A stretch of DNA of 64,000 bases from a virus (Duplodnaviria; Heunggongvirae; Uroviricota; Caudoviricetes), in IMG/VR virus record IMGVR_UViG_3300032245_001763, positions 1 to 64,000 of that record; one strand, written 5' to 3'. The first letter of the stretch is position 1, and every line of letters starts with the position of its first letter. The notes under the pieces were generated by a model. The model was not told the origin of the DNA. It was given only the letters and a program-made list of their open reading frames with translations, and did no database searches. Both the position numbers and the translations under genes were made by a program. Below, one piece after another: positions 7,534-62,017 of this stretch.

Positions 7534-7604
7534 GGGGTTGTGGTGTAAATGAAAACACAATAGATTATGGTCTATATATGGAGGTTTAAATCCTTCCGAC
7601 CCCA
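7534..7604 (+). tRNA. tRNA with a 6-nt anticodon loop (ATAGA-TTATGG-TCTAT); identity uncertain
   Basis: Perfect acceptor GGGGTTG/CGACCCC, D-stem GTGT/ACAC, T-arm GGAGG-TTTAAAT-CCTTC. Confidence 0.5.
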
Positions 7605-8622: not shown

Positions 8623-9015
8623 ATGTATAAATTAATTTTATGTTTTGTAATGATGTTGTTTTTATCTGGTTGTAAAGATTCATTAAGGCTAGATAATCAG
8701 ATAAAAAATCAAATTGAATATAAAAAAGTTTTTGTTAATTCAGTAAATTCAATTACTGTATTAACAGTTGAACAGGAAAATCCAGAAATAATGGCTTTAA
8801 AAAATATTTGTTCAATAAATGAAATAAAATTTATAACTGGTAGTGATAAAAAGATTATTACTTGGCATACATATGGTACTAATTATAATAGACCAGATGT
8901 AAAAAGTTCTTTAGGACCTTGGGATGTTGTTGTATATCTTACTGATGTTAATGAAATAGAAGCTGGTGAATTAGACAAAGGTAAATTTGGTAAAGAAAAG
9001 TTACATGAGTTGTAA
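8623..9015 (+). CDS. putative lipoprotein
   Basis: N-terminal MYKLILCFVMMLFLSGC with an LSGC lipobox. Confidence 0.55.
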   Translation: MYKLILCFVMMLFLSGCKDSLRLDNQIKNQIEYKKVFVNSVNSITVLTVEQENPEIMALKNICSINEIKFITGSDKKIITWHTYGTNYNRPDVKSSLGPWDVVVYLTDVNEIEAGELDKGKFGKEKLHEL

Positions 9016-9214
9016 TTGAAAAAGTTTATGAATCTGAATCTAAAAAATCAGAAAGAATTGCTTTAACAAGAAAGTTTAATCCATCTAAAGAAGAATTAGA
9101 AAATCTTGTTAAAACAATGCCAATGACAAAAGTTGGTAATTTTTTTTCTGTTTCAGATAAATCAATTAGAAAAAGATGTCGTTTATTAGGTATTTTGTTT
9201 TAAAGTTATATAAT

Positions 9215-9287
9215 GCGTTTATGGTGTAGTGGCTACGCACGAAAGTCTTCCAAATTTTAAGGTCCAGTTCGATTCTGGATAAACGCA
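9215..9287 (+). tRNA. tRNA-Gly(TCC)
   Basis: Perfect acceptor GCGTTTA/TAAACGC, anticodon stem AAAGT/ATTTT with loop CTTCCAA, T-arm TCCAG-TTCGATT-CTGGA. Confidence 0.7.
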
Positions 9288-9306
9288 CTTTTTAAGGTTT
9301 TATATT

Positions 9307-9537
9307 ATGAATAATGCACAATTAGAAATAGCAGCGTTACAATATTGTAATTTGATGAAAATAGATCCAAATGAACAAGTTGAACGCCAAAATGATAATA
9401 ATAAATTTGGCAATATGACTTTTGATGTTTATCAAACAGAGTCAAGATTTGAACAAATTAAAAGAATGATTAAAAATTATTATTTGATTAATAAATCAAT
9501 TGAATTTGCTTTAAATCCTCTTAAAGAAAATTTATGA
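9307..9537 (+). CDS. hypothetical protein
   Basis: ORF track, 76 aa. Confidence 0.5.
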   Translation: MNNAQLEIAALQYCNLMKIDPNEQVERQNDNNKFGNMTFDVYQTESRFEQIKRMIKNYYLINKSIEFALNPLKENL

Positions 9538-9818
9538 AATATAAAATTAAGATTCCAAAACCATCTGCTAAAAGATTAAAAAATAAAAGATTAATTATTA
9601 AATATGTAAATGGTTTATTTGATTCGGAAGAATTTATTCCAGTGGATTGTGATGATTATTTTGAGTTTGAATTTAAAAAACCTTTATCAAGTGAAAATAA
9701 TTATATTATGCATCATGAAATGGAAGATGGTCGTTGGAGATATGATTTTTATATTGAGTTCAGTAATGAAACAAGAACTAGACTTGAAAAATTCAAGGTT
9801 GAATTGGAGATAACATGA
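9534..9818 (+). CDS. hypothetical protein
   Basis: ORF track; ATGA overlap. Confidence 0.5.
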   Translation: MKYKIKIPKPSAKRLKNKRLIIKYVNGLFDSEEFIPVDCDDYFEFEFKKPLSSENNYIMHHEMEDGRWRYDFYIEFSNETRTRLEKFKVELEIT

Positions 9819-10000
9819 TAGATGTTGATACAGATATAATTTTTAAATCTGATTTATTAGATTATTATGCAAAACGTTATTGTAAAATAATGAACATTAA
9901 ATTAACTAAAAAAAATCGTGAAGAAATTTTTAACTTAATTAAAAGTCATTTGGCTGTAAGATTTGCATGTGATGAACATTATCCTTTTTAAGATAAAATT

Positions 10001-10222
10001 ATGTATGATAAATTAAAAAATCCAAAAGATGTTTTTGATTTTGACCAAATGGTTGGAAAAATTGTACTTACATATCAATATGGAACTCATGGTGCCGTAG
10101 AGTTGTGGGACAGGGATTCATTTCCAAAAATTTATGATTCAAAAGAAGAAGCAGAAAAAGATTCACCCGAGGAATGGTTAAAACCAACTGTTGTTAGTGA
10201 TAATTGGCCAAAAATTAAATAA
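10001..10222 (+). CDS. hypothetical protein
   Basis: ORF track, 73 aa. Confidence 0.5.
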   Translation: MYDKLKNPKDVFDFDQMVGKIVLTYQYGTHGAVELWDRDSFPKIYDSKEEAEKDSPEEWLKPTVVSDNWPKIK

Positions 10223-10332
10223 TTAGATTAAAATCAGAATGCTTTGTAGAGTTACTTTTTATTTTCAAAAAACCAACACTTTATAAATTTTTGTCTGATT
10301 GTTTTTAAATCTAATCTTTTAGAAAGTTTAAA

Positions 10333-10680
10333 ATGAAAGAAATAGCTAATTTTTTAAAATCTTTTATTGAAATAGAAGAAATGGATTTTTATGAATTTTC
10401 AAAAGATTCCTATTATAGACCATCTTCTGTTGAAGATTTTTTAAATTCATATAAAAATTTTTTATCTGATTTGACAAATCATTTCAACAAAAATATTTTT
10501 AAAGACATAAGTTATACGTATAATATTGATAAATTAATTTTTCATTTAGATTTTATTAAAGAAAAACTAAATGAAAAGCCAGAGTTTTTTGAATTTTTGT
10601 ACATGGCTATTTTCTATAATATTAAGTTTCAAATGTATAAAATAATTGAAAATAAATTGTCTTCTGAGTGTGCCGGATAG
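10333..10680 (+). CDS. hypothetical protein; its 3' end overlaps tRNA-Arg by 22 nt
   Basis: ORF track. Preceded by a conserved intergenic element at 10232-10310. Confidence 0.5.
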   Translation: MKEIANFLKSFIEIEEMDFYEFSKDSYYRPSSVEDFLNSYKNFLSDLTNHFNKNIFKDISYTYNIDKLIFHLDFIKEKLNEKPEFFEFLYMAIFYNIKFQMYKIIENKLSSECAG

Positions 10681-10730
10681 CACGCAAGACTACGGATCTT
10701 GAAGAATGGGTTCAATTCCTATAGAAGATA
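10659..10730 (+). tRNA. tRNA-Arg(ACG)
   Basis: Acceptor GTCTTCT/AGAAGAT, D-stem GTGT/GCAC, perfect anticodon stem CAAGA/TCTTG with loop CTACGGA, T-arm ATGGG-TTCAATT-CCTAT. Confidence 0.7.
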
Positions 10731-10818
10731 TTAATCAGAATGTTTTGTGGAGTTACTTTTTTATTTGCAAAAAAACCTTATACTTCATAAGTTTTTGTCT
10801 GATTTTTTAGGATTTAAT

Positions 10819-11172
10819 ATGAAAAAAATACAAGAATCTATAAATGCTTATTCATTTCTAGATAAATTAGAATTAAATAATTTTGTTACAAAAGATTATT
10901 ATGATGTTGATTTAAAAGATTATACAAAGATTACATTTTGTATAAGATCAATTATTTCGGATTTAAGATCTTGTTTTTTAAATGAATTCCCAAATATTGA
11001 TTTGATCTGTTATTTAGATAACTTTCAAGGTGAAATGCCTGATTTTGTTAAAAATATTTTAACTTCACAAGATAATTTAAAGATATTGTTGGATCATGCT
11101 TTTTATTTGGGAAAATTAGAAATATACAATTCAATTCAAAAATCTAGTTTAGAAAGTTATAATAATGACTGA
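10819..11172 (+). CDS. hypothetical protein (start moved to ATG 10819, downstream of the repeated intergenic element)
   Basis: The ORF track begins at 10747, but 10733-10805 duplicates the element upstream of gene 10333, so the later ATG with MKKIQESINAY is preferred. Confidence 0.45.
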   Translation: MKKIQESINAYSFLDKLELNNFVTKDYYDVDLKDYTKITFCIRSIISDLRSCFLNEFPNIDLICYLDNFQGEMPDFVKNILTSQDNLKILLDHAFYLGKLEIYNSIQKSSLESYNND

Positions 11173-11512
11173 TCAATTTAAAGTAATTGTTGATTTAGAT
11201 CATATTAAATTTGATGATGTAATCTCTATGTCAAAATTTGAAAACTTTAACATAGAAATTGCAGAAATAAAAAAAATATTAATTGAAATTTCAAAAAATT
11301 TAATTGAGAAATTTAATTCTATTTATAGTGAATTTAATATTCCATATGATGAAAATTTCTTATCAGATGATTCTGGTCTAAAAGATTTGGTTAAAGATTA
11401 TACATCTAATATGGATGATATGATGATTTTTTTTGAAAGTTATTTTTTAATATCGAAATATGCAATATTTCAAATTGTTGATCAATATTATCAAAAATTA
11501 AATAAGTATTAA
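11165..11512 (+). CDS. hypothetical protein
   Basis: ORF track, 115 aa. Confidence 0.5.
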   Translation: MTDQFKVIVDLDHIKFDDVISMSKFENFNIEIAEIKKILIEISKNLIEKFNSIYSEFNIPYDENFLSDDSGLKDLVKDYTSNMDDMMIFFESYFLISKYAIFQIVDQYYQKLNKY

Positions 11513-11526
11513 TATATAGTTTACAT

Positions 11527-11597
11527 GCATCATAGGTGTACTGGCGGCATAAAACTTTGCCAAAGTTTAGGACCGAGTTCAATTCTCGGATGATGCT
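11527..11597 (+). tRNA. tRNA-Gly(GCC)
   Basis: Perfect acceptor GCATCAT/ATGATGC, anticodon stem AAACT/AGTTT with loop TTGCCAA, T-arm CCGAG-TTCAATT-CTCGG. Confidence 0.75.
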
Positions 11598-11601
11598 TTT
11601 T

Positions 11602-11715
11602 TGGGCGTGCAGGCGCTAGACAATAGTCTCTTTTCCACTTGTCTTTATTAGAATGATTAAGGGGATTACATTTTTTCTGTAAAAAAACGAAGTGGTTCGA
11701 TTCCACAACGCCCAA
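11602..11715 (+). tRNA. 114-nt tRNA-like gene with a roughly 40-nt internal insertion (an intron at a non-canonical position?). Candidate anticodon arm TTTTT-CTGTAAA-AAAAA gives GTA (Tyr).
   Basis: Perfect acceptor TGGGCGT/ACGCCCA, T-arm GTGG-TTCGATT-CCAC, D-stem AGGC/GTCT. Confidence 0.4.
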
Positions 11716-11796
11716 TTTTATTTTTAGGAAAATTAGTTATGTTTAATGTAAGAAAAGGTGCTGTCTTTTAGTTTTTTAAACTAAAAGGAGCATTAA

Positions 11797-12168
11797 ATGA
11801 AAAAAAGAAAATATTCTTCTTATAAAAGCGTCTTTTACAGAAGAATAAAAACTACTCAAGAACTTCGTGCAAATCAAGATTGTGAGTTCACAAGGGCTAA
11901 AAGGAAAAATATTCCTAATGCTTATGACGACATAGTTGTTAAAAGTAGAACTTACAAATCTTGGAAAAAAATAAGAAAAAATCAATATAAAGAAGATAAT
12001 TCATCGTATTCTTGGCATCAAATAGAAAGACAGAGATTTAATTATGGTTATTCTAACTATGAACAAATTCTTAAAGAATGTTATAGATTAGGGTATTACA
12101 CAGATCATTTTTATGATACAAAAACTAAAAATTATTATTTAAGATGGTACGGAAGAGACATTTCATGA
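11797..12168 (+). CDS. hypothetical basic protein
   Basis: ORF track, 123 aa, K/R/Y-rich. Confidence 0.5.
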   Translation: MKKRKYSSYKSVFYRRIKTTQELRANQDCEFTRAKRKNIPNAYDDIVVKSRTYKSWKKIRKNQYKEDNSSYSWHQIERQRFNYGYSNYEQILKECYRLGYYTDHFYDTKTKNYYLRWYGRDIS

Positions 12169-12416
12169 AACGAGCAGAAAGAAGACATCAAAAAAGATTA
12201 ATGAAAAATTGGGCTAAAAAAGTAGCTCACACAATATGGAATTATGATTCAAATGATTCTGTAACTGAAATTTTTGTTAAAAATGCTGATAATCTTAAAA
12301 TGTGTAGTTGTGAAGGTTGTAGAAATCCGAGAAGAAGTAAATGGTCTAAAAATAAAGGAAAAACAATAAAGGAAATTTTAGCTGATCATGATTTTAATTA
12401 TGATCAATGTGCTTAA
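12144..12416 (+). CDS. hypothetical basic protein
   Basis: ORF track. A long-stem hairpin follows at 12416-12478. Confidence 0.5.
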   Translation: MVRKRHFMKRAERRHQKRLMKNWAKKVAHTIWNYDSNDSVTEIFVKNADNLKMCSCEGCRNPRRSKWSKNKGKTIKEILADHDFNYDQCA

Positions 12417-12627
12417 AACTTACAATATTCATTTTTGTTGCGACAAGCGAATTGAGTGTTTTTCTGAATATTGTAAGTTTTTAATATATAACTAGAATGC
12501 AAATAGAATTACATTATTTGACTGTAAATCAAACCAACCAAATTTTATTAATTTTGTCTAGTTGATTTTTCATTTTAAAATAAATAAAATTTATACTATA
12601 TAAGTAATAAATTTACTTGGAAATTTT

Positions 12628-13035
12628 ATGAATAAAATATCATTTGTCATTGTTTTGTTTTTGGCATTTTTGTTTACTTTTCTCCTTGCAGAAAAGCCGA
12701 ATACTGTTCTAAATAATCAAATTGAAGATTCATTGAAAAATTCAAATGAAGAAACAATTTTTTGTAAAATAATTAAAATAATTAAAATGGATACTAATGG
12801 AAATGGTGAAATTTTAGTTGAGTGTTTTGAAGCTTCTGTTGATTTTGATAAAAAAATTACAATAATTGGATACCCAACCAATTTAGTTGAAACTAAAATT
12901 GAAATTAGTACGCATAAATATTTACAGGATCTAATTGATTACAAAGAAACCGTAATGATTACTTATCGTAAAGAGAACAATGATTTTGTTGCTTCTTTGA
13001 TTAAATTTCCAATTGAATTTCCAATTTCAATATAG
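12628..13035 (+). CDS. putative secreted protein
   Basis: N-terminal signal-like MNKISFVIVLFLAFLFTFLLA. Confidence 0.5.
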   Translation: MNKISFVIVLFLAFLFTFLLAEKPNTVLNNQIEDSLKNSNEETIFCKIIKIIKMDTNGNGEILVECFEASVDFDKKITIIGYPTNLVETKIEISTHKYLQDLIDYKETVMITYRKENNDFVASLIKFPIEFPISI

Positions 13036-13038
13036 TTT

Positions 13039-13109
13039 GCCTGATTCGTACAATGGTAGTACGTCTATCTCGTAAATAGAAAATTTCAGTTCGATTCTGT
13101 AATTAGGCT
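13039..13109 (+). tRNA. tRNA-Thr(CGT)
   Basis: Acceptor GCCTGAT/ATTAGGC, anticodon stem TCTAT/ATAGA with loop CTCGTAA, T-loop TTCGATT. Confidence 0.65.
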
Positions 13110-13130
13110 TTTTATTAAAAATTAATATTT

Positions 13131-13715
13131 ATGAAAACTTTTAAAGAATGGATATTTAAAGAATCACAACAGTTTTTCCTTGGCAGGAGAGATCTCCAAC
13201 AACAGTATAATAATTATATAAATCAATATGTTTTGAGAGACTTAGACAATGAAATTACCTATGTGGAAATTCCAGAAGATCAAGATCAAATAGAAATTTA
13301 TCTGAAACCCACTACAATTAGTACTAGTGTTGTTCAAAAAATTATTGAAGCCGTGAAGTTTTATTCTGGAGAAATAGGTGTACAATTAGGGCAGTCTTAT
13401 AGAAGCAATGATTCTTTGATTATTCCTATTCAAAAGTATCCAAGATATGATTATGACTTTAGTCGTGTTAAGAACCCAATTGTCAGAAAAAATCTGAGTT
13501 CAGGTAATTTAATTGATGTTAATGATATTGGTTATGAAGTAGAAAATGGCGTGTTTAAATTAAACAGATTTGTTAAAGATGCTAATTATTTTGATTCAAA
13601 AAATAACAAAAACATATTTTCTATTGGAAAAAGTTTGTCTACTGGCGAAATATTCGCTTCACACGATACTCGTTATTATAATAATGATGATTATGATACA
13701 CTATATTTAAGATAA
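13131..13715 (+). CDS. hypothetical protein, MKTFK-family (N-terminus MKTFKEWIFKES shared with 24686 and 32540)
   Basis: ORF track. Three genes begin MKTFK(E/Q/T)(W/Y)(I/L)(F/K). Confidence 0.55.
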   Translation: MKTFKEWIFKESQQFFLGRRDLQQQYNNYINQYVLRDLDNEITYVEIPEDQDQIEIYLKPTTISTSVVQKIIEAVKFYSGEIGVQLGQSYRSNDSLIIPIQKYPRYDYDFSRVKNPIVRKNLSSGNLIDVNDIGYEVENGVFKLNRFVKDANYFDSKNNKNIFSIGKSLSTGEIFASHDTRYYNNDDYDTLYLR

Positions 13716-13852
13716 TTAATTCACAAAAATAGAGTTATCTTTTTGTACACATTGAGTGTTTTTTTTGCCAACAATTTGTTTGTTGTTTTTGTTTAATTTT
13801 TATGTAAAAAATTAAAAAGTTTTTAAGTAGTTTTATTTATAAGTAGGGAATT

Positions 13853-14143
13853 ATGAAGTCTGATGAATTAAAAAATGTTATAAAAAATACATCTGGTTTG
13901 CTTTTAGTAGATTTCTATGCTGATTGGTGTGGACCATGTAAAGTAATTAATCAAATGTTAGAAAAAGTTAAAAACAAACTAACAGTTGTAAAAATAAATG
14001 CCGACACAGATCAGAAGTTGCTTGAAGAATACCATGTATCAGCACTTCCAACTTTGATGTTTTATAAAAATGGTCAATTAGTAGATAAAACTGTTGGTGT
14101 TCCTGGTGGTTCTTTTGAAAGAAAAATAGATTCTTTGTTGTAG
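13853..14143 (+). CDS. trx: thioredoxin
   Basis: WCGPCK active-site motif, about 96 aa, thioredoxin-fold spacing (FYADWCGPCK...ALPTLMFYKNGQ). Confidence 0.85.
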   Translation: MKSDELKNVIKNTSGLLLVDFYADWCGPCKVINQMLEKVKNKLTVVKINADTDQKLLEEYHVSALPTLMFYKNGQLVDKTVGVPGGSFERKIDSLL

Positions 14144-16307: not shown

Positions 16308-16967
16308 ATGAAAATTGGATATAAAGCTTCGTATAATTATACTTGTAGAGATCAAAGATACGAAGTTGGTAAAACTTATGAACTTCCATGTAAACCAGAA
16401 CTTTGTAAAACAGGATTTCATTATTGTCAAGATTTGAATGATATTTTTATATATTATTCGATGAATTATAAAACAAATGTTTTTGAAATTGAAGATTTAA
16501 GTGAAGATACTGTTAATTCTAATGGAGAGAATTGTTTTTTGTTTAACAAATCTGCAACTAACAAAATGAAAATTGTTAGAGAAATTTATGATTTTGAAAT
16601 TGTTGAAAACTTACGTTTAAAACATTATTGGGAAAAAGGAAATATTCCTTTTTGTGAAGAAGTAAAGTTGTTAACCTATAAAGCCATAGGTGGTTATTGG
16701 ATAACTAAAATATATAATCATATTAATGATCCAATTTTTTATGTTGATTCTTTTGGGTTGATGGCTTTTTATAAAGATGTGTGTGGTGAAAATATTTCTC
16801 AAGAAATTGAAAATAAAAAATTAAATATTTTATATAAAAATAAGACAAAAGAAAAAGTTTTTAAAGAAACATATAAAACTGGTCATTTTTTAAAAGATGA
16901 TCATGATCTAGATTTTTTTAAAAATGGATTTCGAAAACAAATGTTAGATTCATTAAGTTTTAAGTAG
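16308..16967 (+). CDS. GFHYC-domain family protein (divergent C-terminus, few repeats)
   Basis: N-terminus MKIGYKASYNYTCRDQRYEVGKTYELPCKPELCKTGFHYC. Confidence 0.6.
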   Translation: MKIGYKASYNYTCRDQRYEVGKTYELPCKPELCKTGFHYCQDLNDIFIYYSMNYKTNVFEIEDLSEDTVNSNGENCFLFNKSATNKMKIVREIYDFEIVENLRLKHYWEKGNIPFCEEVKLLTYKAIGGYWITKIYNHINDPIFYVDSFGLMAFYKDVCGENISQEIENKKLNILYKNKTKEKVFKETYKTGHFLKDDHDLDFFKNGFRKQMLDSLSFK

Positions 16968-16980
16968 AAAGTAATAGAAG

Positions 16981-17604
16981 ATGAAAATTGGATATAAAGC
17001 TACATATGATTTTACTTGTCGTCATCACAAGTTTGAAATTGGTCAAATTTACGAATTGTCAGAAAAACCAATTATGTGTTCACGTGGATTTCATTATTGT
17101 AAAGATGCTAAAAATACGTTAAGACACTACAATTACAATAGTCGATTCAAATTGTTAGAAATTGAAGATTTGGGTTTATATACGATTGAACGATCTGATA
17201 AATCTTGTACAAATAAGATAAGAATTATTAGAGAAATTAATGATCCAAATGAATTAATTCAATTACTTGAAGAACATAGAACTTTTAATGAAAATGGCAA
17301 GGAATTAACATATAAAAATTCCACTGGATATTGGCACGAATACACATATGACCAAGATGGCAAGGAATTAACATTTAAAGATTCCAATGAATATTGGCAT
17401 GAATATACATATGATCAATATGATCAAATATTGACGTATAAAGATTCTACTGGATATCAGTACGAATTTACATATGATAAAGACGGTAATAAATTGACAT
17501 ATAAAGATTCTGATAATTACACTTATAATTATACTTATAATAATTATACTTGTGATCAAGGTGAATATGCAATAGAAAGTAATAAAAATGAAAATTGGAT
17601 ATAA
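16981..17604 (+). CDS. GFHYC-domain plus MORN-variant repeat family protein
   Basis: N-domain MKIGYKATYDFTCRHHKFEIGQIYEL...GFHYC...LLEIEDLG...TNKIRIIREI, followed by GKELTYKNSTGYWHEYTYDQD-type repeats. Confidence 0.65.
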   Translation: MKIGYKATYDFTCRHHKFEIGQIYELSEKPIMCSRGFHYCKDAKNTLRHYNYNSRFKLLEIEDLGLYTIERSDKSCTNKIRIIREINDPNELIQLLEEHRTFNENGKELTYKNSTGYWHEYTYDQDGKELTFKDSNEYWHEYTYDQYDQILTYKDSTGYQYEFTYDKDGNKLTYKDSDNYTYNYTYNNYTCDQGEYAIESNKNENWI

Positions 17605-18436
17605 GGGTACATATGATTTTATTTGTCGTGATCATAAGTTTGAAATTGGTCAAACTTATGAATTGCCTAATAAACCCATTTTGTGTAAATATGGTTTTCA
17701 TTATTGCAAGAATGTTTTAGATGTATTAAGTTACTATAATTTAAAACCAAGTTTTAAATTATTAGAAATTGAAGATTTAGGTCACTCTATAACGGATTCA
17801 GATAAAACAGTTACCAATAAGTTGCGTGTTATTCGTGAGGTTCCAGTAGAAGAATTAAATTTGCTTTTTAATTGTAAAATTGAATTTGATTCAAATAAAA
17901 TTACTATCACACAACCAGATGGTTCTTGGAGTTATTTTATTTTTAATGAAAAAAACAATGGAATTTATCATGAAGATTCAACTGGTTTTTGGAGAAAAAA
18001 GTCATACGATGAAAATGATAATTTAGTTAAATTTGAAAATTCGGATGGTGATTATTACAAGCATGAATATAATGAACATGGTAATGAAATTTATTTTGAA
18101 TCATCAACTGGATTTTGGGAAAAGAAAACTTATAATGAGTTTCAAAGTTTAACTTATCTTGAAAATTCAAGAGGCGAATGGATCAAGTATTCATATGATT
18201 CAAAAAACAATTTTCTTTCTGAAGAAAGATCAAATGGAATTTGGATTAAAAACAAATATGATGAAAATAATAATGAAATTTATCATGAAGATTCGTATAG
18301 AACATGGATAAAAAGTAAATATGATTCTAAAAATAATTTGATTTTTCAAGAATCTTCTTATAATAATTGGTTTGAAAATAAAGTTATAATATTTTTTTAT
18401 TTAATAAAATATTGTTTTAGAAAGCTCATAAAATGA
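17588..18436 (+). CDS. GFHYC-domain plus MORN-variant repeat family protein
   Basis: Same N-domain; C-terminal repeats G.W.K..YDENNN. Confidence 0.65.
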   Translation: MKIGYKGTYDFICRDHKFEIGQTYELPNKPILCKYGFHYCKNVLDVLSYYNLKPSFKLLEIEDLGHSITDSDKTVTNKLRVIREVPVEELNLLFNCKIEFDSNKITITQPDGSWSYFIFNEKNNGIYHEDSTGFWRKKSYDENDNLVKFENSDGDYYKHEYNEHGNEIYFESSTGFWEKKTYNEFQSLTYLENSRGEWIKYSYDSKNNFLSEERSNGIWIKNKYDENNNEIYHEDSYRTWIKSKYDSKNNLIFQESSYNNWFENKVIIFFYLIKYCFRKLIK

Positions 18437-19053
18437 AAGTTGGATATAAGGCAACATATAATTATATGTGTCGTGGATTTAAGTATGAAATTGGTAAAAC
18501 TTATGAAATCGAAGGCAAATCAGAATTGTGCGAACGTGGATTTCATTATTGCGAATTACCACATCAAACACTTGCTTTTTATCCTATAAATCCTTATTTT
18601 AAATTACTTGAAATACAAGATTTAGGTAACACTAAAATAGATAAACAAAAGTGTTCTACAAATAAAATTAAAATATTAAGAGAAATAGAAAATGTTGGCA
18701 CATTAAGCACTGCATTACATGGAATGCATGATGCAATATACAAAAATGACAAAAATTATATTGTTTCATCTGGTCTATTTTCAAAATTTAAAGATATAGA
18801 AGAATTTTCATATACAGATATGTCTATGACTTTTGAGAAAAAAATTAAACTTGATTCAAATTATAGAATTATTGAAGAAGAATCTGATAATTACAAGTAT
18901 AGATTTTTTCATACAAAAAATAAAACATACAAATTTTATTATGATAATTTTCCATCAAAGTGCATTTCATATATTGATTACTTTTTTATTAAAATGTTTA
19001 ATAAAGAATCTGTTTATGTTAATAATGGGTCTATTATAGAGTGTGAAAAATGA
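18433..19053 (+). CDS. GFHYC-domain family protein (repeat-poor)
   Basis: MKVGYKATYNYMCRGFKYEIGKTYEIEGKSELCERGFHYC. Confidence 0.6.
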   Translation: MKVGYKATYNYMCRGFKYEIGKTYEIEGKSELCERGFHYCELPHQTLAFYPINPYFKLLEIQDLGNTKIDKQKCSTNKIKILREIENVGTLSTALHGMHDAIYKNDKNYIVSSGLFSKFKDIEEFSYTDMSMTFEKKIKLDSNYRIIEEESDNYKYRFFHTKNKTYKFYYDNFPSKCISYIDYFFIKMFNKESVYVNNGSIIECEK

Positions 19054-20677: not shown

Positions 20678-20748
20678 TGATCTTTGGTGTAATGTTAGCA
20701 TAATAGCAGATGGTGCTTTAGGAAACGGTTAAATTCCGTTAAGATCAA
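20678..20748 (+). tRNA. tRNA with the unusual anticodon loop AGATGGT (anticodon ATG?, His-like); identity uncertain
   Basis: Perfect acceptor TGATCTT/AAGATCA, D-stem GTGT/GCAT, T-arm AACGG-TTAAATT-CCGTT. Confidence 0.5.
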
Positions 20749-21995: not shown

Positions 21996-22066
21996 CAGGG
22001 TATGGTATAGTGGGAGTACAGGAGATTTGGGATCTTCTAGCAGTTGTTCGATTCAACTTACCCTGA
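21996..22066 (+). tRNA. tRNA-Pro(TGG)
   Basis: Perfect acceptor CAGGGTA/TACCCTG, anticodon stem GGAGA/TCTTC with loop TTTGGGA, perfect T-arm AGTTG-TTCGATT-CAACT. Confidence 0.7.
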
Positions 22067-22160
22067 CTTTATTAGAATGATAGAAGGAATACATTTACAA
22101 TCTCCACCAAAATTAGGGGACTAAATATCTTTTTAGACTTTGTCTAATAAATTTTTATAT

Positions 22161-22229
22161 GGGGCGTCCAACGGGTTGGTACTGTGTTTTGCACATACGG
22201 TTTTATGGGTTCAACTCCCATACGCTCCA
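22161..22229 (+). tRNA. tRNA-Ala(TGC)
   Basis: Acceptor GGGGCGT/ACGCTCC, anticodon stem TGTGT/ATACG with loop TTTGCAC, T-arm ATGGG-TTCAACT-CCCAT. Confidence 0.6.
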
Positions 22230-22246
22230 ATAATTTTTGTTTAAAT

Positions 22247-22599: not shown

Positions 22600-22902
22600 A
22601 TGAGTAAAATACCAATTTCAATAAGATTAGAAGAAGAAACTATAAATTTATTAAAAGTTGCTGCAATGCAAGAAGCATTGCGACGTGGTAATTATGATTT
22701 AAACTATATTAATTTAATAGAAGAGGCGATTCATGAAGCATATGATGAATCTTTATTTAAAGAAGCAAAGGTAAAAATTTCTGAAAATGCTAAATGTTTG
22801 AAAAATATAATTAAGAAAAATAAAAATAATGGCAAAATTGAATTAGTTAATGACAACACTATAGACAAAGCATTTGTTGATAGCCTTTTAGGAAGCAAAT
22901 GA
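22600..22902 (+). CDS. hypothetical protein
   Basis: ORF track, 100 aa; ATGA overlap with the next gene. Confidence 0.5.
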   Translation: MSKIPISIRLEEETINLLKVAAMQEALRRGNYDLNYINLIEEAIHEAYDESLFKEAKVKISENAKCLKNIIKKNKNNGKIELVNDNTIDKAFVDSLLGSK

Positions 22903-24116
22903 AAAGAGATAAATTAATAGATAATCCAAAATTGATGAATCTTTTTGATTTTGATAAAAATAAAGATTTAGATATCAATAAATTAACTGAAGGTCAAACA
23001 TATAAATTATGGTGGAAGTGTAAATTTAATCATTCATGGCAAGCTAGAATAGCAGATATTGAAAATGGAATTGGTTGTCCACTCTGCTTTAAACAAAAAG
23101 GATCTTCGCTTTATAAGCGTCTTGAATTAATTCACTATTGGCATCCTGATAAAAATGGAATATTATCTCCCGATGATGAGTTTTCTTTTAATAAACAAAA
23201 AATTTGGTGGAAATGTCCAGTTGCCAATGATCATGAATGGCAAACAACTGTAAATTTGAAAAGAGGATGTCCTTTTTGTAACGGTAATAAAGTATGTAAT
23301 TCTAATTGTTTATTAACCACACATCCTGAAACAGCAAAAGAGTGGCATCCTACTAAAAATAATTTAAAACCTAGTGCTGTAACAGCAGGTTCTCATAAAA
23401 AAGTATGGTGGAAGTGTTCAGTTGCTGAAGACCATGAGTGGGAGTCAATAATATCAAAAAGAACTGATGCGTCAAGAAAAAAGCTTAGAGGATGTCCTTG
23501 TTGTAGTGGAAAAAAACTTGTTTTATCTAATTGTGTAGCAACGAAATTTCCAAATCTTTTATTAGAATTTGATTATATTAAAAATTTAAATAAAACGCTT
23601 TATGATGTTGTATTTTCTAGTAAGGAAAAATTTTATTGGAAATGTAAAAAAGGTCATGAGTGGCAAAGTTCTATTTTAGTCAGATGTTCAGGTTCTGGCT
23701 GTCCTGAATGTAAAAATTCTAAAGGTGAAAACAGAGTAAAAGAATATTTGTTATCAAAAAATATTAATTATATATTACAATATAATTTTGGTGATAATAA
23801 ATTGAAAATGCGAGCCGATTTTTTTGTAACTAAAGTTAGACCAAGTATTATTGAGTACAATGGTGGACAACATTATTTTCCTGTAAATTTTGGTTCAAAA
23901 TCTTTTGATGCTAAGGAAAAAAATTTTAAAAAGAATAAAGAACGAGACAAGATTAAATCTGACTATTGTCGAGAGAACAACATAGAATTATTGATCATCC
24001 CATATTGGGACTTTGATAGAATTGAAGAGATATTAGATTCTTGGTTTAATTATGAAGAAGTAAAATTTTCTGAAGAACCAGAAATTGTGAAAAAGTACAA
24101 AGGAAAAAACTTATGA
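22899..24116 (+). CDS. Multi-zinc-ribbon (about 8 WWKC...HEW...GCPxC repeats, DUF4379-like) protein with a C-terminal DUF559/Vsr-like nuclease-fold domain
   Basis: Repeats YKLWWKCKFNHSWQARIADIENGIGCPLC, KIWWKCPVANDHEWQTTVNLKRGCPFC, KVWWKCSVAEDHEWESI...GCPCC and KFYWKCKKGHEWQSSILVRCSGSGCPEC. C-terminus DFFVTKVRPSIIEYNGGQHYFP...ERDKIKSDYCRENNIELLIIPYW. Confidence 0.6.
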   Translation: MKRDKLIDNPKLMNLFDFDKNKDLDINKLTEGQTYKLWWKCKFNHSWQARIADIENGIGCPLCFKQKGSSLYKRLELIHYWHPDKNGILSPDDEFSFNKQKIWWKCPVANDHEWQTTVNLKRGCPFCNGNKVCNSNCLLTTHPETAKEWHPTKNNLKPSAVTAGSHKKVWWKCSVAEDHEWESIISKRTDASRKKLRGCPCCSGKKLVLSNCVATKFPNLLLEFDYIKNLNKTLYDVVFSSKEKFYWKCKKGHEWQSSILVRCSGSGCPECKNSKGENRVKEYLLSKNINYILQYNFGDNKLKMRADFFVTKVRPSIIEYNGGQHYFPVNFGSKSFDAKEKNFKKNKERDKIKSDYCRENNIELLIIPYWDFDRIEEILDSWFNYEEVKFSEEPEIVKKYKGKNL

Positions 24117-27441: not shown

Positions 27442-28020
27442 ATGAAAACAGGATATAAAGCTACTTATGATTATATTTGTATCAATCATAAGTTTGAAAT
27501 TGGTCATTCTTATGAATTATCACATAAGCCAATTCCTTGTCAATATGGGTTTCATTATTGCGTAAATCCGAAAGATGTTTTGCATTATTACCCAATTCAA
27601 CATAAGTTTCGTTTACTTGAAATTGAAGATTTAGGTGAATCAATTACTGAAGGTGATAAATCGGTAACAAATAAAATTCGAATTATTCGAGAAGTTCCAA
27701 AAGAAGAATATTATCCTTTATTTGGTATTGTTAATAATAAATTAAAGTTTGTTAACATATTTGGTTGTTTGGAAAAACGTGAATTTGATGAAAGAAATAA
27801 TTGTATTTATTATGAAAAATCAAATGGTGATTGGCAAAAATACACATATGATGAAAGAAATAATAAAATTCGTTATGAAGAGTCGGGTGGATATTGGGTA
27901 AAACATGAATATGATGAAAGAAATAATCAAATTTATTATGAAGATTCAAATGGTTATTGGGACAAATACACATATGATGTAAACAATAATTATTTGAAAA
28001 CAGAAAGAGGACATAAATGA
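27442..28020 (+). CDS. GFHYC-domain plus MORN-variant repeat family protein
   Basis: MKTGYKATYDYICINHKFEIGHSYEL...GFHYC...LLEIEDLGESITEGDKSVTNKIRIIREVPKEEYYPLFG, then YDERNN repeats. Confidence 0.65.
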   Translation: MKTGYKATYDYICINHKFEIGHSYELSHKPIPCQYGFHYCVNPKDVLHYYPIQHKFRLLEIEDLGESITEGDKSVTNKIRIIREVPKEEYYPLFGIVNNKLKFVNIFGCLEKREFDERNNCIYYEKSNGDWQKYTYDERNNKIRYEESGGYWVKHEYDERNNQIYYEDSNGYWDKYTYDVNNNYLKTERGHK

Positions 28021-28753
28021 AAACTGGATATAAAGCTACATACGATTTTATTTGTCTAGATCATAAATTTGAAATAGGTCAAACTTATGAATTACAAGGA
28101 ACTCCAATTCCTTGTGAATATGGATTTCATTATTGTGTAAATTCGAAAGATGTGTTGAAATATTATATAATTAAACGTGATTTTCGCGTGATTTTCGATT
28201 ACTGGAAATTGAAGATCTTGGAGAATCAATCGTTAAAGAAGATAAAACTGTAACAAATAAATTACGTGTTGTTCGAGAAGTTCCAAAAGAAGAATATTAT
28301 CCTTTGTTTGGGATTATTAATAACGAATTAACAATTACTAAGTCATCTGGTAATTGGGAAAAACGTAAGTTTGATGAAAGAAATAATTGTATTTATCTTG
28401 AATATTCAAATGGTTTTTGGTCTATACATGAATATGATGAAAATAATAATTTAATTTATGTTGAATATTCAAATGGTGAATGGAAAAAATACAAATATGA
28501 TGAAAATAATAATTTAATTTATGTTGAATATTCAAATGGTGAATGGAAAAAATACAAATATGATGAAAGAAATAATCTAATTTATTCTGAAAGTTCAAGG
28601 GTTTATTGGGTAAAACGAACATATGATGAAAATAATAATGAAATTTATTATGAAGATTCATCTGGTGATTGGAAAAAACGCAAATTTGATCAAAATAATA
28701 ATTGTATTTATTATGAAAAATCAAATGGTTATTGGCAAAAAAAACACATATGA
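28017..28753 (+). pseudogene. GFHYC/MORN-family gene disrupted by an 11-bp tandem duplication (CGTGATTTTCG) at about 28192-28202. It is split into ORFs 28017-28253 and 28304-28753.
   Basis: Actual AAACGTGATTTTCGCGTGATTTTCGATTACTGG versus the paralogue-expected AAACGTGATTTTCGATTACTGG (K-R-D-F-R-L-L-E-I-E-D-L-G). Removing the 11 bp restores LLEIEDLGESIVKEDKTVTNKLRVVREVPKEEYYPLFGIINNELT in frame. Confidence 0.7.
28435..28560 (+). repeat. Perfect 63-bp tandem duplication (2 copies), equal to one 21-aa MORN-variant repeat unit (EYSNGEWKKYKYDENNNLIYV)
   Basis: 28435-28497 is identical to 28498-28560. Confidence 0.8.
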
Positions 28754-28792
28754 TGAAAGCAATAATTGCTTAAAAACAGAAAGAGGACATAA

Positions 28793-29308
28793 GTGAAAAC
28801 TGGATTCAAAGCAACCTATAATTTTATTTGTTTAAATCACAAGTTCGAAATTGGCAAAACTTATGAGTTACCAAGAACTCCAATTCCTTGCGAATATGGT
28901 TTTCATTATTGTGTAAAACCAATTGACGTTCTTGAATATTATCCAATTCAACATGATTTTCGTTTGTTGGAAATTGAAGATCTTGGAGAATCAATCGTTA
29001 AAGAAGATAAAACTGTAACAAATAAGATTCGGATTATTCGAGAAATTCCAAAAGAAGAATATTATCAACTATTTGGAATTATCAATAATGAATTAAAATA
29101 CTTCACCAGATTTGGCAATTGGATAAATCAAAAATTTGATGAAAGAAACAATCCAATTTATTATGAATATCTAACTGGTTATTGGACAAAACGTGAATAT
29201 GATGAAAGAAATAATCTTATTCATTCTGAAGACTCATTTGGCTATTGGGAAAAACATGAATATGATGAAAATAATAATCTTTTAACAAAAGAAATAGGAC
29301 TCAAATGA
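28793..29308 (+). CDS. GFHYC-domain plus MORN-variant repeat family protein
   Basis: MKTGFKATYNFICLNHKFEIGKTYELPRTPIPCEYGFHYC. GTG start; ATGA overlap with the next gene. Confidence 0.6.
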   Translation: MKTGFKATYNFICLNHKFEIGKTYELPRTPIPCEYGFHYCVKPIDVLEYYPIQHDFRLLEIEDLGESIVKEDKTVTNKIRIIREIPKEEYYQLFGIINNELKYFTRFGNWINQKFDERNNPIYYEYLTGYWTKREYDERNNLIHSEDSFGYWEKHEYDENNNLLTKEIGLK

Positions 29309-29910
29309 AAACTGGATATAAAGCTACTTACGATTATATCTGCAGAGATCACAAGTTCGAAATTGGTAAAACTTATGAGTTATCAAGAACTCCAATTCTT
29401 TGCAAATATGGTTTTCATTATTGTCTAAAACCAAAAGACGTTTTAGATTATTATCCAATCAATCAAGAGTTCCATTTATTAGAAATTGAAGATTTAAGTA
29501 GTCAAACACAATTAGATTATTTTAAGCGTATTAGTGTTACTAATAAAATTAGAATTATCAGAGAAATAGTTGATAAAAAAGAATTTTTAAATCTGTTAGG
29601 TAGTTATCATCAGTATGATGATAACAAAAATTTAATTTATTCTGAATATACAAATGGTTATTGGAAAAAGTTTTACTATGACGAATTAAATCGTTTAGTG
29701 TTCAACACGGACTCGGATAATCTGTGGTTTAAACGTAAATATAATAAAAATAGCAGATTAATTTATTATGAAGATTCATTTGGTTATCATGAGTGTTTTG
29801 AGTACGATGAGAATGATTGTAAAACTTATTATAAAAATTCAACTGATGGCGAATTTAGATACACATATGATCAAAATGTTGTAAAAATTCAAAAATTGGA
29901 GTCTAAATGA
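29305..29910 (+). CDS. GFHYC-domain plus MORN-variant repeat family protein
   Basis: MKTGYKATYDYICRDHKFEIGKTYELSRTPILCKYGFHYC. Confidence 0.65.
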   Translation: MKTGYKATYDYICRDHKFEIGKTYELSRTPILCKYGFHYCLKPKDVLDYYPINQEFHLLEIEDLSSQTQLDYFKRISVTNKIRIIREIVDKKEFLNLLGSYHQYDDNKNLIYSEYTNGYWKKFYYDELNRLVFNTDSDNLWFKRKYNKNSRLIYYEDSFGYHECFEYDENDCKTYYKNSTDGEFRYTYDQNVVKIQKLESK

Positions 29911-30398
29911 AAACAGGATATAAAGGTACTTATAATTACGTTTGTAAAAATCAAAAGTATGAAATTGGAAGTTCATATGAATTATTATTTGAACCACGTA
30001 TTTTTTCATGTGGATTTCATTATTGTCAAAAAGCTTCTAATGTTTTATTGCACTATCAAGATTATGTTTTTGAATTTAAACTCTTAGAAATTGAAGATTT
30101 AAGTAATTGTGCAGATACTTATTTTGATTCTGATAATTATTCTACTAACAAAATTAGAATTATTAGAGAAATTAGTGATAAAACTGAGTTATTGAAATTA
30201 CTTGGTAGATATCATGAGTTTAATTCAGACAAAAATGTTACTTATTGGGAATCTTCTGATGGTCGTTGGGCAAAATACAGCTATAATCATCATGGAGACT
30301 TATGTTTTTTAGAAGATTATAACGGTGTTAAGTGTGAATTTATCTATAATTCTGATAGAAGGTTTTTAAAAACAAAAATGTATGAAAACAAATTTTAA
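29907..30398 (+). CDS. GFHYC-domain family protein
   Basis: MKTGYKGTYNYVCKNQKYEIGSSYELLFEPRIFSCGFHYC. Confidence 0.6.
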   Translation: MKTGYKGTYNYVCKNQKYEIGSSYELLFEPRIFSCGFHYCQKASNVLLHYQDYVFEFKLLEIEDLSNCADTYFDSDNYSTNKIRIIREISDKTELLKLLGRYHEFNSDKNVTYWESSDGRWAKYSYNHHGDLCFLEDYNGVKCEFIYNSDRRFLKTKMYENKF

Positions 30399-33515: not shown

Positions 33516-34145
33516 GTGAATTTGTTAAAACGTATAAAAAACAATCTGTTTAGAGTAGGTTATAAAGCAACATATAATTATATGTGTCGAGATCATAAGT
33601 TCGAAATTGGTCAAACTTATGAATTGCCATATAGACCAGTTACTTGTCATTGTGGTTTTCATTATTGTAAAAATCCAAAAGATGTATTAAGATACTACCC
33701 AATTAATCCAAAATTTAAATTACTGGAAATAAAAGATATTGGGAAAACATCTTGTGAGGGTGATAAGCGTGCTACAAATAAAATTAAAATATTAAGAGAA
33801 ATAACTGATCATTCTGAATTAGAATTTTTGTTAAAATGTAAATTCAAAATTGAAGAAAATTATTATTGTTTGTGGCATGAAGATGGTTTCGATGAATACA
33901 AATGGAATGAGCAAGATCAAATTGTATATTATAACAATCAAAATAATAAATGGTACAAAAAAACATATGATAACAATGGCAGATTGATTTTCATGGAAAA
34001 AAACAATTATATTGAAGAATATAAATATGAAAACCATATGAAATATTTCAGGTTTGTTAGTGGAAACAAAAAAACAAGTAAAGACAAATTGTTTAGAAAA
34101 ATTAGTTATAAAGGTTGGAAATTGTATGATCAACGCTGGCTATAA
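33516..34145 (+). CDS. GFHYC-domain family protein
   Basis: VGYKATYNYMCRDHKFEIGQTYELPYRPVTCHCGFHYC. Confidence 0.6.
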   Translation: MNLLKRIKNNLFRVGYKATYNYMCRDHKFEIGQTYELPYRPVTCHCGFHYCKNPKDVLRYYPINPKFKLLEIKDIGKTSCEGDKRATNKIKILREITDHSELEFLLKCKFKIEENYYCLWHEDGFDEYKWNEQDQIVYYNNQNNKWYKKTYDNNGRLIFMEKNNYIEEYKYENHMKYFRFVSGNKKTSKDKLFRKISYKGWKLYDQRWL

Positions 34146-34275
34146 AGCAACGATTAATTGTAAGTCACTACATGATGATGTACAATATGAAGTTGGAAAA
34201 GAGTATTCTTTAGAGGGTATGCCATTAATTCATTGGCAAGGGTTTCATTATTGTAATTATCCAGAAAGGTTTTGA
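34126..34275 (+). CDS. Short GFHYC-domain-only family member
   Basis: MINAGYKATINCKSLHDDVQYEVGKEYSLEGMPLIHWQGFHYC. Confidence 0.35.
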   Translation: MINAGYKATINCKSLHDDVQYEVGKEYSLEGMPLIHWQGFHYCNYPERF

Positions 34276-34881
34276 ATGTTTAATTTATTTGATATTTATA
34301 AAAGATACAAATATGGAATTGGATATAAATCTACTTATAACTATAAAGGAATGAATGATTTTCAATATAATGTTGGTGAAACATATGAAATTAAACAAAA
34401 GCCTGTAGTTTGTTTTAATGGTTTTCATTATTGTATAAATCCACATGATGTTTTAAATTATTATCCAATTTTTGCTTCATCAAATTTTTTTGAAGTAAAA
34501 GCTTTGGGCAAAATTCATGTTGATCTGCAAGAGGGTAAATTTGCTACTAATAAAATGAAAATTGTTAGAGAAATAACCGATAAAGAAGAAATGAATAATC
34601 TATTTGGATTTTATGTTGAAAAACAAGAAAGCAAAACTATTATTCATTGTAAAAGGAATCCAGATTTTTTCGAAGAATACACTAAGGTGGACCCAACATT
34701 AATTGAACGAGAAGCTTATTTGTGTTTCACAGGTCCGATGATATCTGAATACACAAATAAACATTATGATTACTATATTTATAGTAATAGTCATGGATTT
34801 AGGTATCTTATTGAAACATATAAAGATTCTTCAAGAGCAATTAAAAAATATTATTTCAACAATAATGCAAGGTTTCAATAG
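34276..34881 (+). CDS. GFHYC-domain family protein
   Basis: GIGYKSTYNYKGMNDFQYNVGETYEIKQKPVVCFNGFHYC. Confidence 0.55.
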   Translation: MFNLFDIYKRYKYGIGYKSTYNYKGMNDFQYNVGETYEIKQKPVVCFNGFHYCINPHDVLNYYPIFASSNFFEVKALGKIHVDLQEGKFATNKMKIVREITDKEEMNNLFGFYVEKQESKTIIHCKRNPDFFEEYTKVDPTLIEREAYLCFTGPMISEYTNKHYDYYIYSNSHGFRYLIETYKDSSRAIKKYYFNNNARFQ

Positions 34882-46836: not shown

Positions 46837-46936
46837 TAATCTGTGGCATAGACGTGATAATTTAAATATTATGAGGAAGAGTGGGTACTTCTGCCGCCGT
46901 CCGGCTGCTTCGCGAGTTCGAGTCTCGCCAGATTAT
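46837..46936 (+). ncRNA. tRNA-like / structured RNA with a GC-rich hairpin (CTGCCGCCGTCCGGCTGC), a T-arm GCGAG-TTCGAGT-CTCGC and an acceptor-like pairing TAATCTG/CAGATTA. About 100 nt, non-canonical interior.
   Basis: 46741-46936 is markedly GC-rich relative to the window. A T-loop motif lies at 46917-46923. The upstream 5'-GGGGGCTGA at 46770 resembles a tmRNA 5' end, but no matching 3' acceptor was found. Confidence 0.3.
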
Positions 46937-46949: not shown

Positions 46950-47213
46950 TTGAAAATGTTTATGTATAAAATTAACGAAGTTTTTGATCATTCTGTCATT
47001 AGATCTGAAGCTAATTTCGATCGTGCATCTGATGCAGCATATAAATTTGCACTTTTTAAATTTGAAATTGATGAAGATGGTCATTCTTCTAGAGTAGAAG
47101 GCTGGGAAAGGTCTTCTTGTTCGATTGAAATCGAATTTAAAAAATATATTCGTAATGGTCACGAACATGTTTATAATTTTACCATTGCAGTTAGAAAGAG
47201 TGAAAATGAGTAG
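46950..47213 (+). CDS. hypothetical protein
   Basis: ORF track, 87 aa. Confidence 0.35.
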   Translation: MKMFMYKINEVFDHSVIRSEANFDRASDAAYKFALFKFEIDEDGHSSRVEGWERSSCSIEIEFKKYIRNGHEHVYNFTIAVRKSENE

Positions 47214-56069: not shown

Positions 56070-56096
56070 AAACTATTTATGAAATTTTTAATAAAC

Positions 56097-57370: not shown

Positions 57371-57382
57371 TTTTAATTCCTT

Positions 57383-57670: not shown

Positions 57671-57714
57671 TTTTTTCCTTACTCACTTAAAAGTTTTTTT
57701 GTTTAACTATCTAT

Positions 57715-59499: not shown

Positions 59500-59512
59500 A
59501 ATTTTCCTAATT

Positions 59513-60364: not shown

Positions 60365-60366
60365 AA

Positions 60367-61967: not shown

Positions 61968-62017
61968 TTTTACCTTTAACTAAGTTGATTATTTTTGAAT
62001 GATACTATAATATAATT

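Follow-up and report, generated by a model that had tools for sequence, protein, structure and literature searches.

What is a tRNA gene that has kept both of its ends and carries some 40 nucleotides (nt) too many in between? The question is raised by a 114-nt locus at 11602-11715 in a 64,000-nt stretch of phage DNA (positions 1 to 64,000 of the IMG/VR virus record IMGVR_UViG_3300032245_001763, Caudoviricetes; hereafter the window), where it lies in an array of tRNA genes. An earlier note on this DNA had described the locus as a tRNA-like gene with a candidate Tyr anticodon arm, and had suggested an intron or insertion at a non-canonical position. Our analysis suggests, with about an even chance of being right, that a local rearrangement within a birth-and-death array has disrupted a gene derived from tRNA-Tyr(GUA); a tRNA-like RNA, a poor or dead decoder, would probably still be excised from its transcript. 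This reading is built on the anatomy of the locus, the failure of tRNA models on the intact locus, its rescue by virtual deletion, its paralogy to another part of the array and the lack of a splice motif; from these we infer how the gene may have arisen, be transcribed and processed, and have lost its function.

The ends of the locus are those of a tRNA gene. As the earlier note had stated, the acceptor strands TGGGCGT and ACGCCCA are perfectly complementary (7/7 Watson-Crick pairs) and a T arm is present; it is canonical, with a TTCGATT loop on a stem of 4 base pairs (bp) and an A·A mismatch; the discriminator is an A (Table 1). In a strict scan of 128 kb (both strands together), each hit had to combine a T-loop motif with a 7/7 acceptor and a T stem of 4 bp or more, two or more of them G-C pairs. 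The output consisted essentially of the known tRNAs, with a few cross-pairings between neighbours, and of three new loci at 3090, 11602 and 46837, and included no locus on the minus strand. Given this specificity, the tRNA-like ends of 11602-11715 are not a matter of chance.

The interior is irregular. No GG is present in the hairpin that adjoins the acceptor (AGGC...GTCT or AGAC-AATA-GTCT), and the sole GG run available for pairing with the T loop sits in a hairpin 43 nt (11609-11651) past the 5' acceptor strand. The anticodon arm had been described as TTTTT-CTGTAAA-AAAAA (GTA, Tyr), and its loop is as described; the quoted 5-bp stem, however, is not formed in the window, since only seven A follow CTGT there and the arm (T6-CTGT-A7) has four A-U pairs and a T·C mismatch. 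The eight A that complete the stem were found only in a sister strain (contigs L005 and L042). GUA and A73 are present as in a bacterial tRNA-Tyr, but the variable region is only 3-4 nt long (CGA/CGAA) and class I-like.

None of the tRNA models recognised the intact locus. The structure-aware search that the earlier note had recommended did not return it: ARAGORN at default settings, with or without its intron mode, left 11602-11715 uncalled, and the Rfam tRNA model gave no match at its gathering score (29 bits), nor at E<=10 on 25 kb or on 131 nt. A covariance model built from 20 canonical tRNAs of the same array (R1) scores its own members at 56-73 bits, the odd-loop tRNAs of the window at 40-49 bits and the tRNA-like gene 3090-3171 at 23.2 bits. 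The window allele of the 114-nt locus obtained 11.3 bits, which is noise level in a search of the whole window, in a match limited to 11639-11715 and with four of the seven acceptor pairs non-standard; the allele with eight A (A8, as against A7 in the window) obtained 17 bits in a parse without a D arm that places GUA in the anticodon loop. These parses indicate that the 3' two-thirds of the locus are tRNA-like and the 5' third is disrupted. The minimum free energy fold (-28 kcal/mol, z = -1.5) is not a cloverleaf, and folds constrained to a cloverleaf lie 6-10 kcal/mol above it.

The position of the surplus was explored by virtual deletions (about 3,300 in total, half of them in A8) that removed, in either allele, each possible internal stretch of 15-59 nt, with ARAGORN run at graded thresholds on the products. 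The top deletion removed gene nt 8-46 (11609-11647) and turned the A8 allele into a tRNA-Tyr(GTA) at 104% of the ARAGORN default threshold, in a range where genuine tRNAs of the array persist (100-120%). The second-best placement, at the junction of the first hairpin and the anticodon arm with a surplus of about 41 nt, reached 98%; the surplus of about 40 nt reported by the earlier note is thus real, and the position given for it, between D arm and anticodon arm, comes second. After deletion, the A7 allele passes only with shifted anticodons (TGT, CTG). R1 takes the downstream hairpin as the D arm in the window allele and parses the A8 allele with no D arm at all. Many different deletions gave near-equal scores, which leaves an excision boundary undefined. 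In the model that fits best, then, the surplus would sit directly after the 5' acceptor strand, with the D/anticodon junction a close second and the position ambiguous. The deletion product is drawn by ARAGORN with an acceptor of 8 bp and a T stem of 4 bp. Without the deletion, the eighth acceptor pair would have to close over the 39-nt insert, and an arrangement of 7 pairs, a mismatch and 4 pairs is equally possible. The insert so defined is predicted to be mostly unstructured: AGGCGCT (11611-11617) nearly repeats the acceptor strand, AGAC-AATA-GTCT (11618-11629) makes a hairpin of 4 bp, and the remainder is pyrimidine-rich and unpaired.

The surplus region has a relative within the array itself. 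Its best match in the whole window is a stretch that begins in the last bases of tRNA-Pro(TGG) and continues into the trailer, with a 15/15 core, the 15-mer CTTTATTAGAATGAT, in an alignment of about 33 nt. The alignment score of 37 compares with 28.4 ± 2.5 for dinucleotide shuffles and was reached by one of 150 shuffles. The tRNA-Ala gene downstream of this stretch has an acceptor (TGGGGCGT/ACGCTCCA) that is one base pair off that of the 114-nt gene. We considered and rejected the possibility that the 15-mer is a dispersed motif, as there are only two exact copies, and that the tRNA-Pro spacer is a structured RNA or ribozyme (z = -1.6, no Rfam match). To judge from these matches, the insert may be a product of illegitimate recombination or of a duplication inside the array. 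One plausible driver of such rearrangement is the HNH/DUF4379 endonuclease, whose gene comes directly behind the array's last tRNA.

Based on these results we can outline how the locus may have come about. About 39 nt would have been inserted between the 5' acceptor strand and the D-arm region, breaking the 5' part of the gene, and the insert would be in part a copy of the 'tRNA 3' end plus spacer' that follows tRNA-Pro, beside the tRNA-Ala with its near-identical acceptor. The gene is probably cotranscribed with tRNA-Gly(GCC), which ends 4 nt upstream, and RNase P and RNase Z may still release an RNA by way of the intact acceptor/T minihelix. With the insert staying in, this RNA of about 114 nt would be a poor or inactive elongator tRNA, and its gene, one of several irregular members of the array, would be en route to a pseudogene. 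Promoter and terminator scans around 11602-11715 gave nothing that exceeded shuffles. Undetectable, pseudogene-like members are known from long tRNA arrays of bacteria, plasmids and phages, and bacterial arrays also have neighbouring homing endonucleases, as in the Anabaena trn operon (PMC8421152). The array described here resembles them: it is dense, holds duplicates and members that fail tRNA models, and has a homing endonuclease gene adjacent to it. Unlike the pseudogenes of such arrays, the 114-nt gene has perfect acceptor complementarity and a canonical anticodon loop and is the sole gene of its type. If it is inactive, it would be an ordinary by-product of the fast duplication and decay of phage tRNA arrays, and a caution for annotation, since it is missed by tRNA finders and mislabelled at relaxed settings.

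Several observations speak against a gene in decay. With its intact T loop, 7/7 acceptor, CUGUAAA loop and A73, the locus is less decayed than would be expected of a long-dead gene, and it is the only Tyr-type gene among the more than 31 tRNA genes of the window; no canonical tRNA-Tyr was found elsewhere in the window or in the 7.6 kb searched upstream of it. The insert has been retained in all five assemblies seen, which come from at least three ENA assembly accessions and one Logan run; an assembly artefact is rejected on these grounds. The sister strain, assembled twice (L005, L042) and 94.9% identical over 7.7 kb, differs at the locus in ways that are compatible with the structure: the run of eight A after CTGT completes a perfect 5-bp anticodon stem (five A-U pairs), and ACGCCTA in place of ACGCCCA converts one acceptor pair from G-C to G·U. 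In favour of decay, on the other hand, stands the A7 run of the window allele, with its weaker anticodon stem and shifted anticodon call. A last point against decay is that natural polycistronic transcripts are known to include irregular tRNAs whose acceptor and D stems are separated by an 'E-loop' (Mukai et al., 2017; PMC5389517). Sequence conservation adds nothing in either direction. The strains differ at 2 positions in the 114 nt of the locus, at none in 287 nt of canonical tRNAs, at 3.9% of intergenic and 5.95% of coding positions; two or fewer differences are found in 45% of all 114-nt windows, divergence is mosaic and the homologues come from a single other strain, so that the comparison is uninformative.

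The main rival of a disrupted gene is accordingly a functional one, an irregular tRNA-Tyr in which the surplus is kept as an enlarged E-loop between the acceptor and D stems; we regard it as unlikely, with enough in its favour to be taken seriously. The surplus might take the place in space of the long variable arm of bacterial tRNA-Tyr, or give resistance to host tRNA nucleases. The intact acceptor, T loop, CUGUAAA loop and A73, the standing of the locus as the sole Tyr gene of the array and the structure-compatible allele differences all count for this reading, as does the body left after deletion, which scores like the weaker genuine tRNAs of the array. So do other array tRNAs that are odd and yet high-scoring, namely the 92-nt Asn(GUU) and 86-nt His(GUG) with long variable arms and a Trp of the 8/4 type. 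There is also precedent: E-loop and (8/4) tRNAs have been documented, and the (8/4) ones include tRNA-Ser and tRNA-His from tRNA clusters of phages (Mukai et al., 2017; PMC5389517; reviewed in PMC7609411); phage tRNAs have been reported to evade tRNA-targeting defences (PMC10264068, PMC11555353). Like those irregular tRNAs, the locus lies in a tRNA cluster, 4 nt after tRNA-Gly and beside other non-canonical tRNAs; in the best model an unpaired surplus would lie between the acceptor and D stems, and an 8-bp acceptor with a 4-bp T stem is possible. It differs from the E-loop tRNAs in that its surplus, a whole segment of 39 nt, is partly a copy of an array spacer. Its sequence shows no similarity to published allo-tRNAs, it belongs to no family of homologues, and its insertion point is ambiguous.

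What lowers our estimate of this reading is found mostly in the locus itself. The insert has no stable fold of its own past the 4-bp hairpin, the D arm is poor, the anticodon stem is purely A-U and, in the window, broken, the intact locus goes unrecognised by the covariance models, and no diverged homologue was found that would show selection. In addition, Mukai et al. (2017; PMC5389517) found no aminoacylation in vitro of the E-loop tRNA that they tested. Were the RNA stable and charged, it would extend the structural tolerance known for elongator tRNAs to a large arm beside the acceptor stem and, along with the 6-nt anticodon loops and the long arms of the Asn and His tRNAs, would suggest that phage tRNAs have been systematically remodelled, perhaps as an escape from host defences that target tRNAs.

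A non-decoding role has rather little probability in our view. The RNA could act as processing 'punctuation' that splits tRNA-Gly from the mRNA of ORF (open reading frame) 11797-12168, the downstream neighbour of the locus, or as a decoy for host nucleases that attack GUN anticodons. The preserved part, an acceptor/T minihelix, is indeed the target of RNase P, RNase Z and the CCA-adding enzyme, the same minihelix is preserved in 3090-3171 and 46837-46936, and the locus lies between a tRNA and an ORF. The proposal is purely inferential, however, with no conserved motif and no relatives to draw on, and punctuation would not require a canonical anticodon loop. A similarly slim chance may be given to the idea that the phage carries a remodelled, functional tRNA set, made up of a Tyr with an extra domain, long-armed Asn(GUU) and His(GUG), an (8/4) Trp and 6-nt-loop tRNAs of Ile, Leu or His type, with shapes that would evade host anticodon nucleases or make orthogonal substrates for charging factors of the phage. 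This idea appeals to a fragment of a class II aminoacyl-tRNA synthetase (aaRS) and a YqeY-like protein encoded nearby; if it were true, the locus would encode the first natural elongator tRNA with an extra arm of about 39 nt at the acceptor/D junction.

The intron suggested by the earlier note fares worse, and we think it very improbable that the locus encodes a pre-tRNA from which 39-41 nt are removed by proteins (an endonuclease and an RNA ligase of phage or host) to leave a tRNA-Tyr of 73-76 nt. It is true that the A8 allele minus 11609-11647 is a tRNA-Tyr that passes ARAGORN. On the other hand, none of 35-36 relaxed bulge-helix-bulge (BHB) candidates yields an ARAGORN tRNA after excision, even at 90% thresholds, the intron mode of ARAGORN is silent at default settings, and the 58 window ORFs scanned include no RNA ligase or splicing endonuclease. 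The excision boundaries are undefined and the supposed intron is in part a copy of spacer DNA. Group I introns are typically longer than 200 nt and lie in the anticodon loop; the surplus measures 39-41 nt and lies 5' of the anticodon arm, and no Rfam intron or ribozyme family was found at the locus. A short intervening sequence outside position 37/38 does recall archaeal pre-tRNAs with introns at non-canonical positions (PMC4090602, PMC3241643); unlike those, the locus shows no BHB and stands in a phage context of bacterial type, in which the matched proteins are bacterial or phage-like and no splicing enzymes were found. Scarcely credible, finally, is a class II tRNA-Ile(GAT) in which T6-CTGT-A6 forms a long variable arm and the anticodon loop lies upstream, for although ARAGORN draws it in intron mode and other array tRNAs have unexpected long variable arms, the call is weak and appears only at 80% thresholds, with an 18-nt intron at 32/33, a 26-nt variable region and an anticodon stem of one U-A, three U·G and one C-G pair, Ile is not a class II tRNA, and CTGTAAA is the anticodon loop in both covariance-model parses.

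The earlier note had also listed three neighbours with odd loops or interiors, and had associated extended or shortened anticodon loops with frameshift suppression or recoding, of which we saw no sign in the sequence. The standard code fits the window: 76% of it is covered by stop-to-stop ORFs of 100 codons or more, the long ORFs end at all three stop codons, which rejects a reassignment of stop codons, and none of the tRNAs called by ARAGORN has an anticodon for a stop codon. This coarse test of stop-to-stop coverage across the window, in which single genes were not inspected for frameshifts, revealed no ORF that is interrupted or recoded. The odd features themselves are confirmed. Gene 7534-7604 does have a 6-nt anticodon loop, and 3090-3171 is indeed 82 nt long with a non-canonical interior between intact ends. 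The 8-nt loop claimed for 3012-3084 appears in the Rfam alignment, and ARAGORN draws a 6-nt loop instead; the choice between 8 and 6 nt hinges on one A-T pair. Insofar as it can be drawn with an 8-nt loop, 3012-3084 resembles 8-nt-loop suppressor and organellar tRNAs such as the yeast mt-tRNA-Thr(UAG) (PMC7609411), and the 6-nt loops of 7534-7604 and 46837-46936 may be set beside frameshift-suppressor tRNAs (PMC7609411). Unlike frameshift suppressors, though, the 8-nt loop of 3012-3084 (AATATTGT) lacks the succession of U33, four-base anticodon and purine, having an A at the U33 position, and the drawing with a 6-bp stem and 6-nt loop is equally good. Neither 3012-3084 nor 7534-7604 thus qualifies as a frameshift suppressor.

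Relatives of the locus are few, and the searches for homologues all led back to one lineage. A blastn search of 9000-14000 against 50,697 phage records gave nothing; a search for exact matches to the gene's 3' end was negative in IMG/VR and, among metagenome contigs, gave only the known sister contig; and a degenerate pattern of Tyr anticodon arm plus T loop found nothing in IMG/VR. The three flanking ORFs have protein homologues only at 89-97% identity, and the contigs among them that cover the locus hold the one sister allele (L005, L042). A strain of 89% identity (L004, Logan run SRR32414321) is without the 114-nt locus. The same contig (L004:1-1700) has an IS605-family TnpB, split and in two orientations, in place of ORF 11797-12168, an arrangement that is either an insertion or an assembly chimera. 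Among huge-phage loci reached through SPFH and DUF7666 proteins, only L010 (IMGVR_UViG_3300013121_000010, with an SPFH protein 58% identical) has an array there. In it, 4 nt after a tRNA-Arg(TCT), lies an irregular gene some 110 nt long (L010:232-343) that likewise has a CTGTAAA loop; for ARAGORN to call this gene tRNA-Tyr, thresholds had to be lowered to 95% and 12-13 nt deleted, and it has no sequence homology to 11602-11715.

The array that holds the locus comprises 31 tRNA genes by ARAGORN, which lie between 1.1 and 22.5 kb and are all encoded on the plus strand; 23 of them reach the Rfam gathering score. It has duplicates (four Asn, three each of Lys and Thr, and two each of Glu, Ala, Pro, Val, Gly and Arg) and no tRNA called in the window for Leu, Ser, Tyr or Phe. 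Sub-threshold tRNA-like remnants are found at 516-585, 3090-3171, 5510-5551, 20678-20748 and 46837-46936. The window has a G+C content of 25% and matches a metagenomic scaffold of 530,789 bp (ena:ERZ28594238, KRAE22-1 scaffold_3). The phage is also present in ERR2848520 (SAMEA4981813), ERZ724522, ERZ724528 and SRR5676436. Its genes are small, densely packed and mostly without an assigned function; recognisable products include DUF7666 paralogues, HNH endonucleases, a 5'-3' exonuclease, glycosyl-, methyl- and sulfotransferases, a YqeY-like protein and the class II aaRS fragment, and this content fits a huge phage of about 530 kb. At about 55,900-64,000, offsets from contigs L001 and L002 imply that the window extends some 8 kb beyond the start of the ENA scaffold; by these coordinate offsets the window would come from another assembly or a circularised version of the genome.

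Table 1. Coordinates of the 114-nt locus, its parts and related features of the window (R1, covariance model from 20 canonical tRNAs of the array; scores in bits)
Feature	Position	Strand	Details
tRNA-like remnant, weak	516-585		R1 25; ARAGORN tRNA-Met(CAT) only at 95% thresholds
tRNA-Trp(CCA)	1181-1260		80 nt; 49:65 mismatch, nt 8 pairs with 65 (8/4); 6-bp anticodon stem
tRNA-Asn(GUU)	1619-1710		92 nt; class-II-type variable arm (6-bp stem); discriminator G; ARAGORN to 120% of threshold; Rfam 50
tRNA with alternative anticodon arms	3012-3084/5	+	5-bp stem and 8-nt loop AATATTGT (Rfam alignment, 38) or 6-bp stem and 6-nt loop ATATTG (ARAGORN); R1 48.8
82-nt tRNA-like gene	3090-3171	+	7/7 acceptor; perfect T arm; non-canonical interior; Rfam 22.1 (below gathering, 29); ARAGORN none; R1 23.2
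tRNA-like remnant, weak	5510-5551		R1 19
tRNA-His(GUG)	5554-5639		86 nt; variable-arm hairpin; G-1 not encoded; nt 8 can pair with nt 65, 8/4 possible
tRNA with 6-nt anticodon loop	7534-7604	+	Loop TTATGG; Rfam 51.4; ARAGORN 'tRNA-???'; R1 40.8
tRNA-Gly(GCC), canonical	11527-11597	+	ARAGORN; R1 67, a match by construction (among the 20 training tRNAs); ends 4 nt before the 114-nt gene
5' acceptor strand TGGGCGT	11602-11608	+	Watson-Crick 7/7 with 11708-11714
Surplus, 39 nt (gene nt 8-46), best model	11609-11647	+	ARAGORN after virtual deletion
Segment paralogous to tRNA-Pro(TGG) trailer/spacer	11640-11673	+	Exact 15-mer CTTTATTAGAATGAT; paralogue at 22064-22096
D-arm-like hairpin AATG-ATTAAGGGGATTA-CATT	11652-11672	+	Contains GGGG; D arm in ARAGORN post-deletion product and in R1 parse of window allele
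Anticodon arm, T-run/CTGTAAA/A-run	11672-11688	+	Loop 11677-11683; GTA 11679-11681
T arm AGTGG-TTCGATT-CCACA	11691-11707	+	4 bp and A·A mismatch at 49:65
3' acceptor strand ACGCCCA and discriminator A	11708-11715	+	Discriminator at 11715; CCA not encoded
Uncalled tRNA-like gene	20678-20748		Directly after tRNA-Val(GAC); loop AGATGGT (G at 33); R1 40.5
Paralogue of the inserted segment	22064-22096	+	From last bases of tRNA-Pro(TGG) into trailer; upstream of tRNA-Ala
tRNA-Ala	22160-22230	+	Acceptor TGGGGCGT/ACGCTCCA, one base pair off that of the 114-nt gene
HNH-type homing endonuclease	22899-24116		405 amino acids; four DUF4379 zinc-finger repeats; directly after last array tRNA
tRNA-like gene, about 100 nt	46837-46936		7/7 acceptor; G+C-rich T arm; 6-nt loop TTAAAT (Leu/Phe type); two-hairpin variable region

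Some of the other irregular tRNAs call for comment beyond Table 1. An Asn anticodon together with a long variable arm is unusual, and recalls 'allo-tRNAs' of Ser identity and the V-arm tRNAs of nematodes. For the tRNA-Trp(CCA) at 1181-1260, the best Rfam match is tRNA-Sec, at 43.8 bits (gathering score 47). The gene at 46837-46936 lies far from the array, just upstream of the YqeY-like ORF, and is called by ARAGORN only after deletion of 13-17 nt; the region upstream of it was rejected as a structured RNA or ribozyme (z = -1.0, with Rfam scanned at gathering level only). By eye, and unaligned, 20678-20748 looks like a paralogue of 7534-7604: the D arms of the two are alike, and their T loops (TTAAATT and TTTAAAT) are rich in A/T.

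Among the protein-coding genes, the aaRS fragment (198 amino acids, 50886-51482, E = 9e-6) is of the Asp/Lys/Asn type, and the YqeY/GatB-like protein is encoded at 47125-47646. The DUF7666 paralogues number at least 12 and form tandem blocks at 16308-19053, 27442-30398, 33516-34881 and 48901-50189; a relative with 55% identity is encoded on a 320-kb IMG/VR contig (L008/L009).

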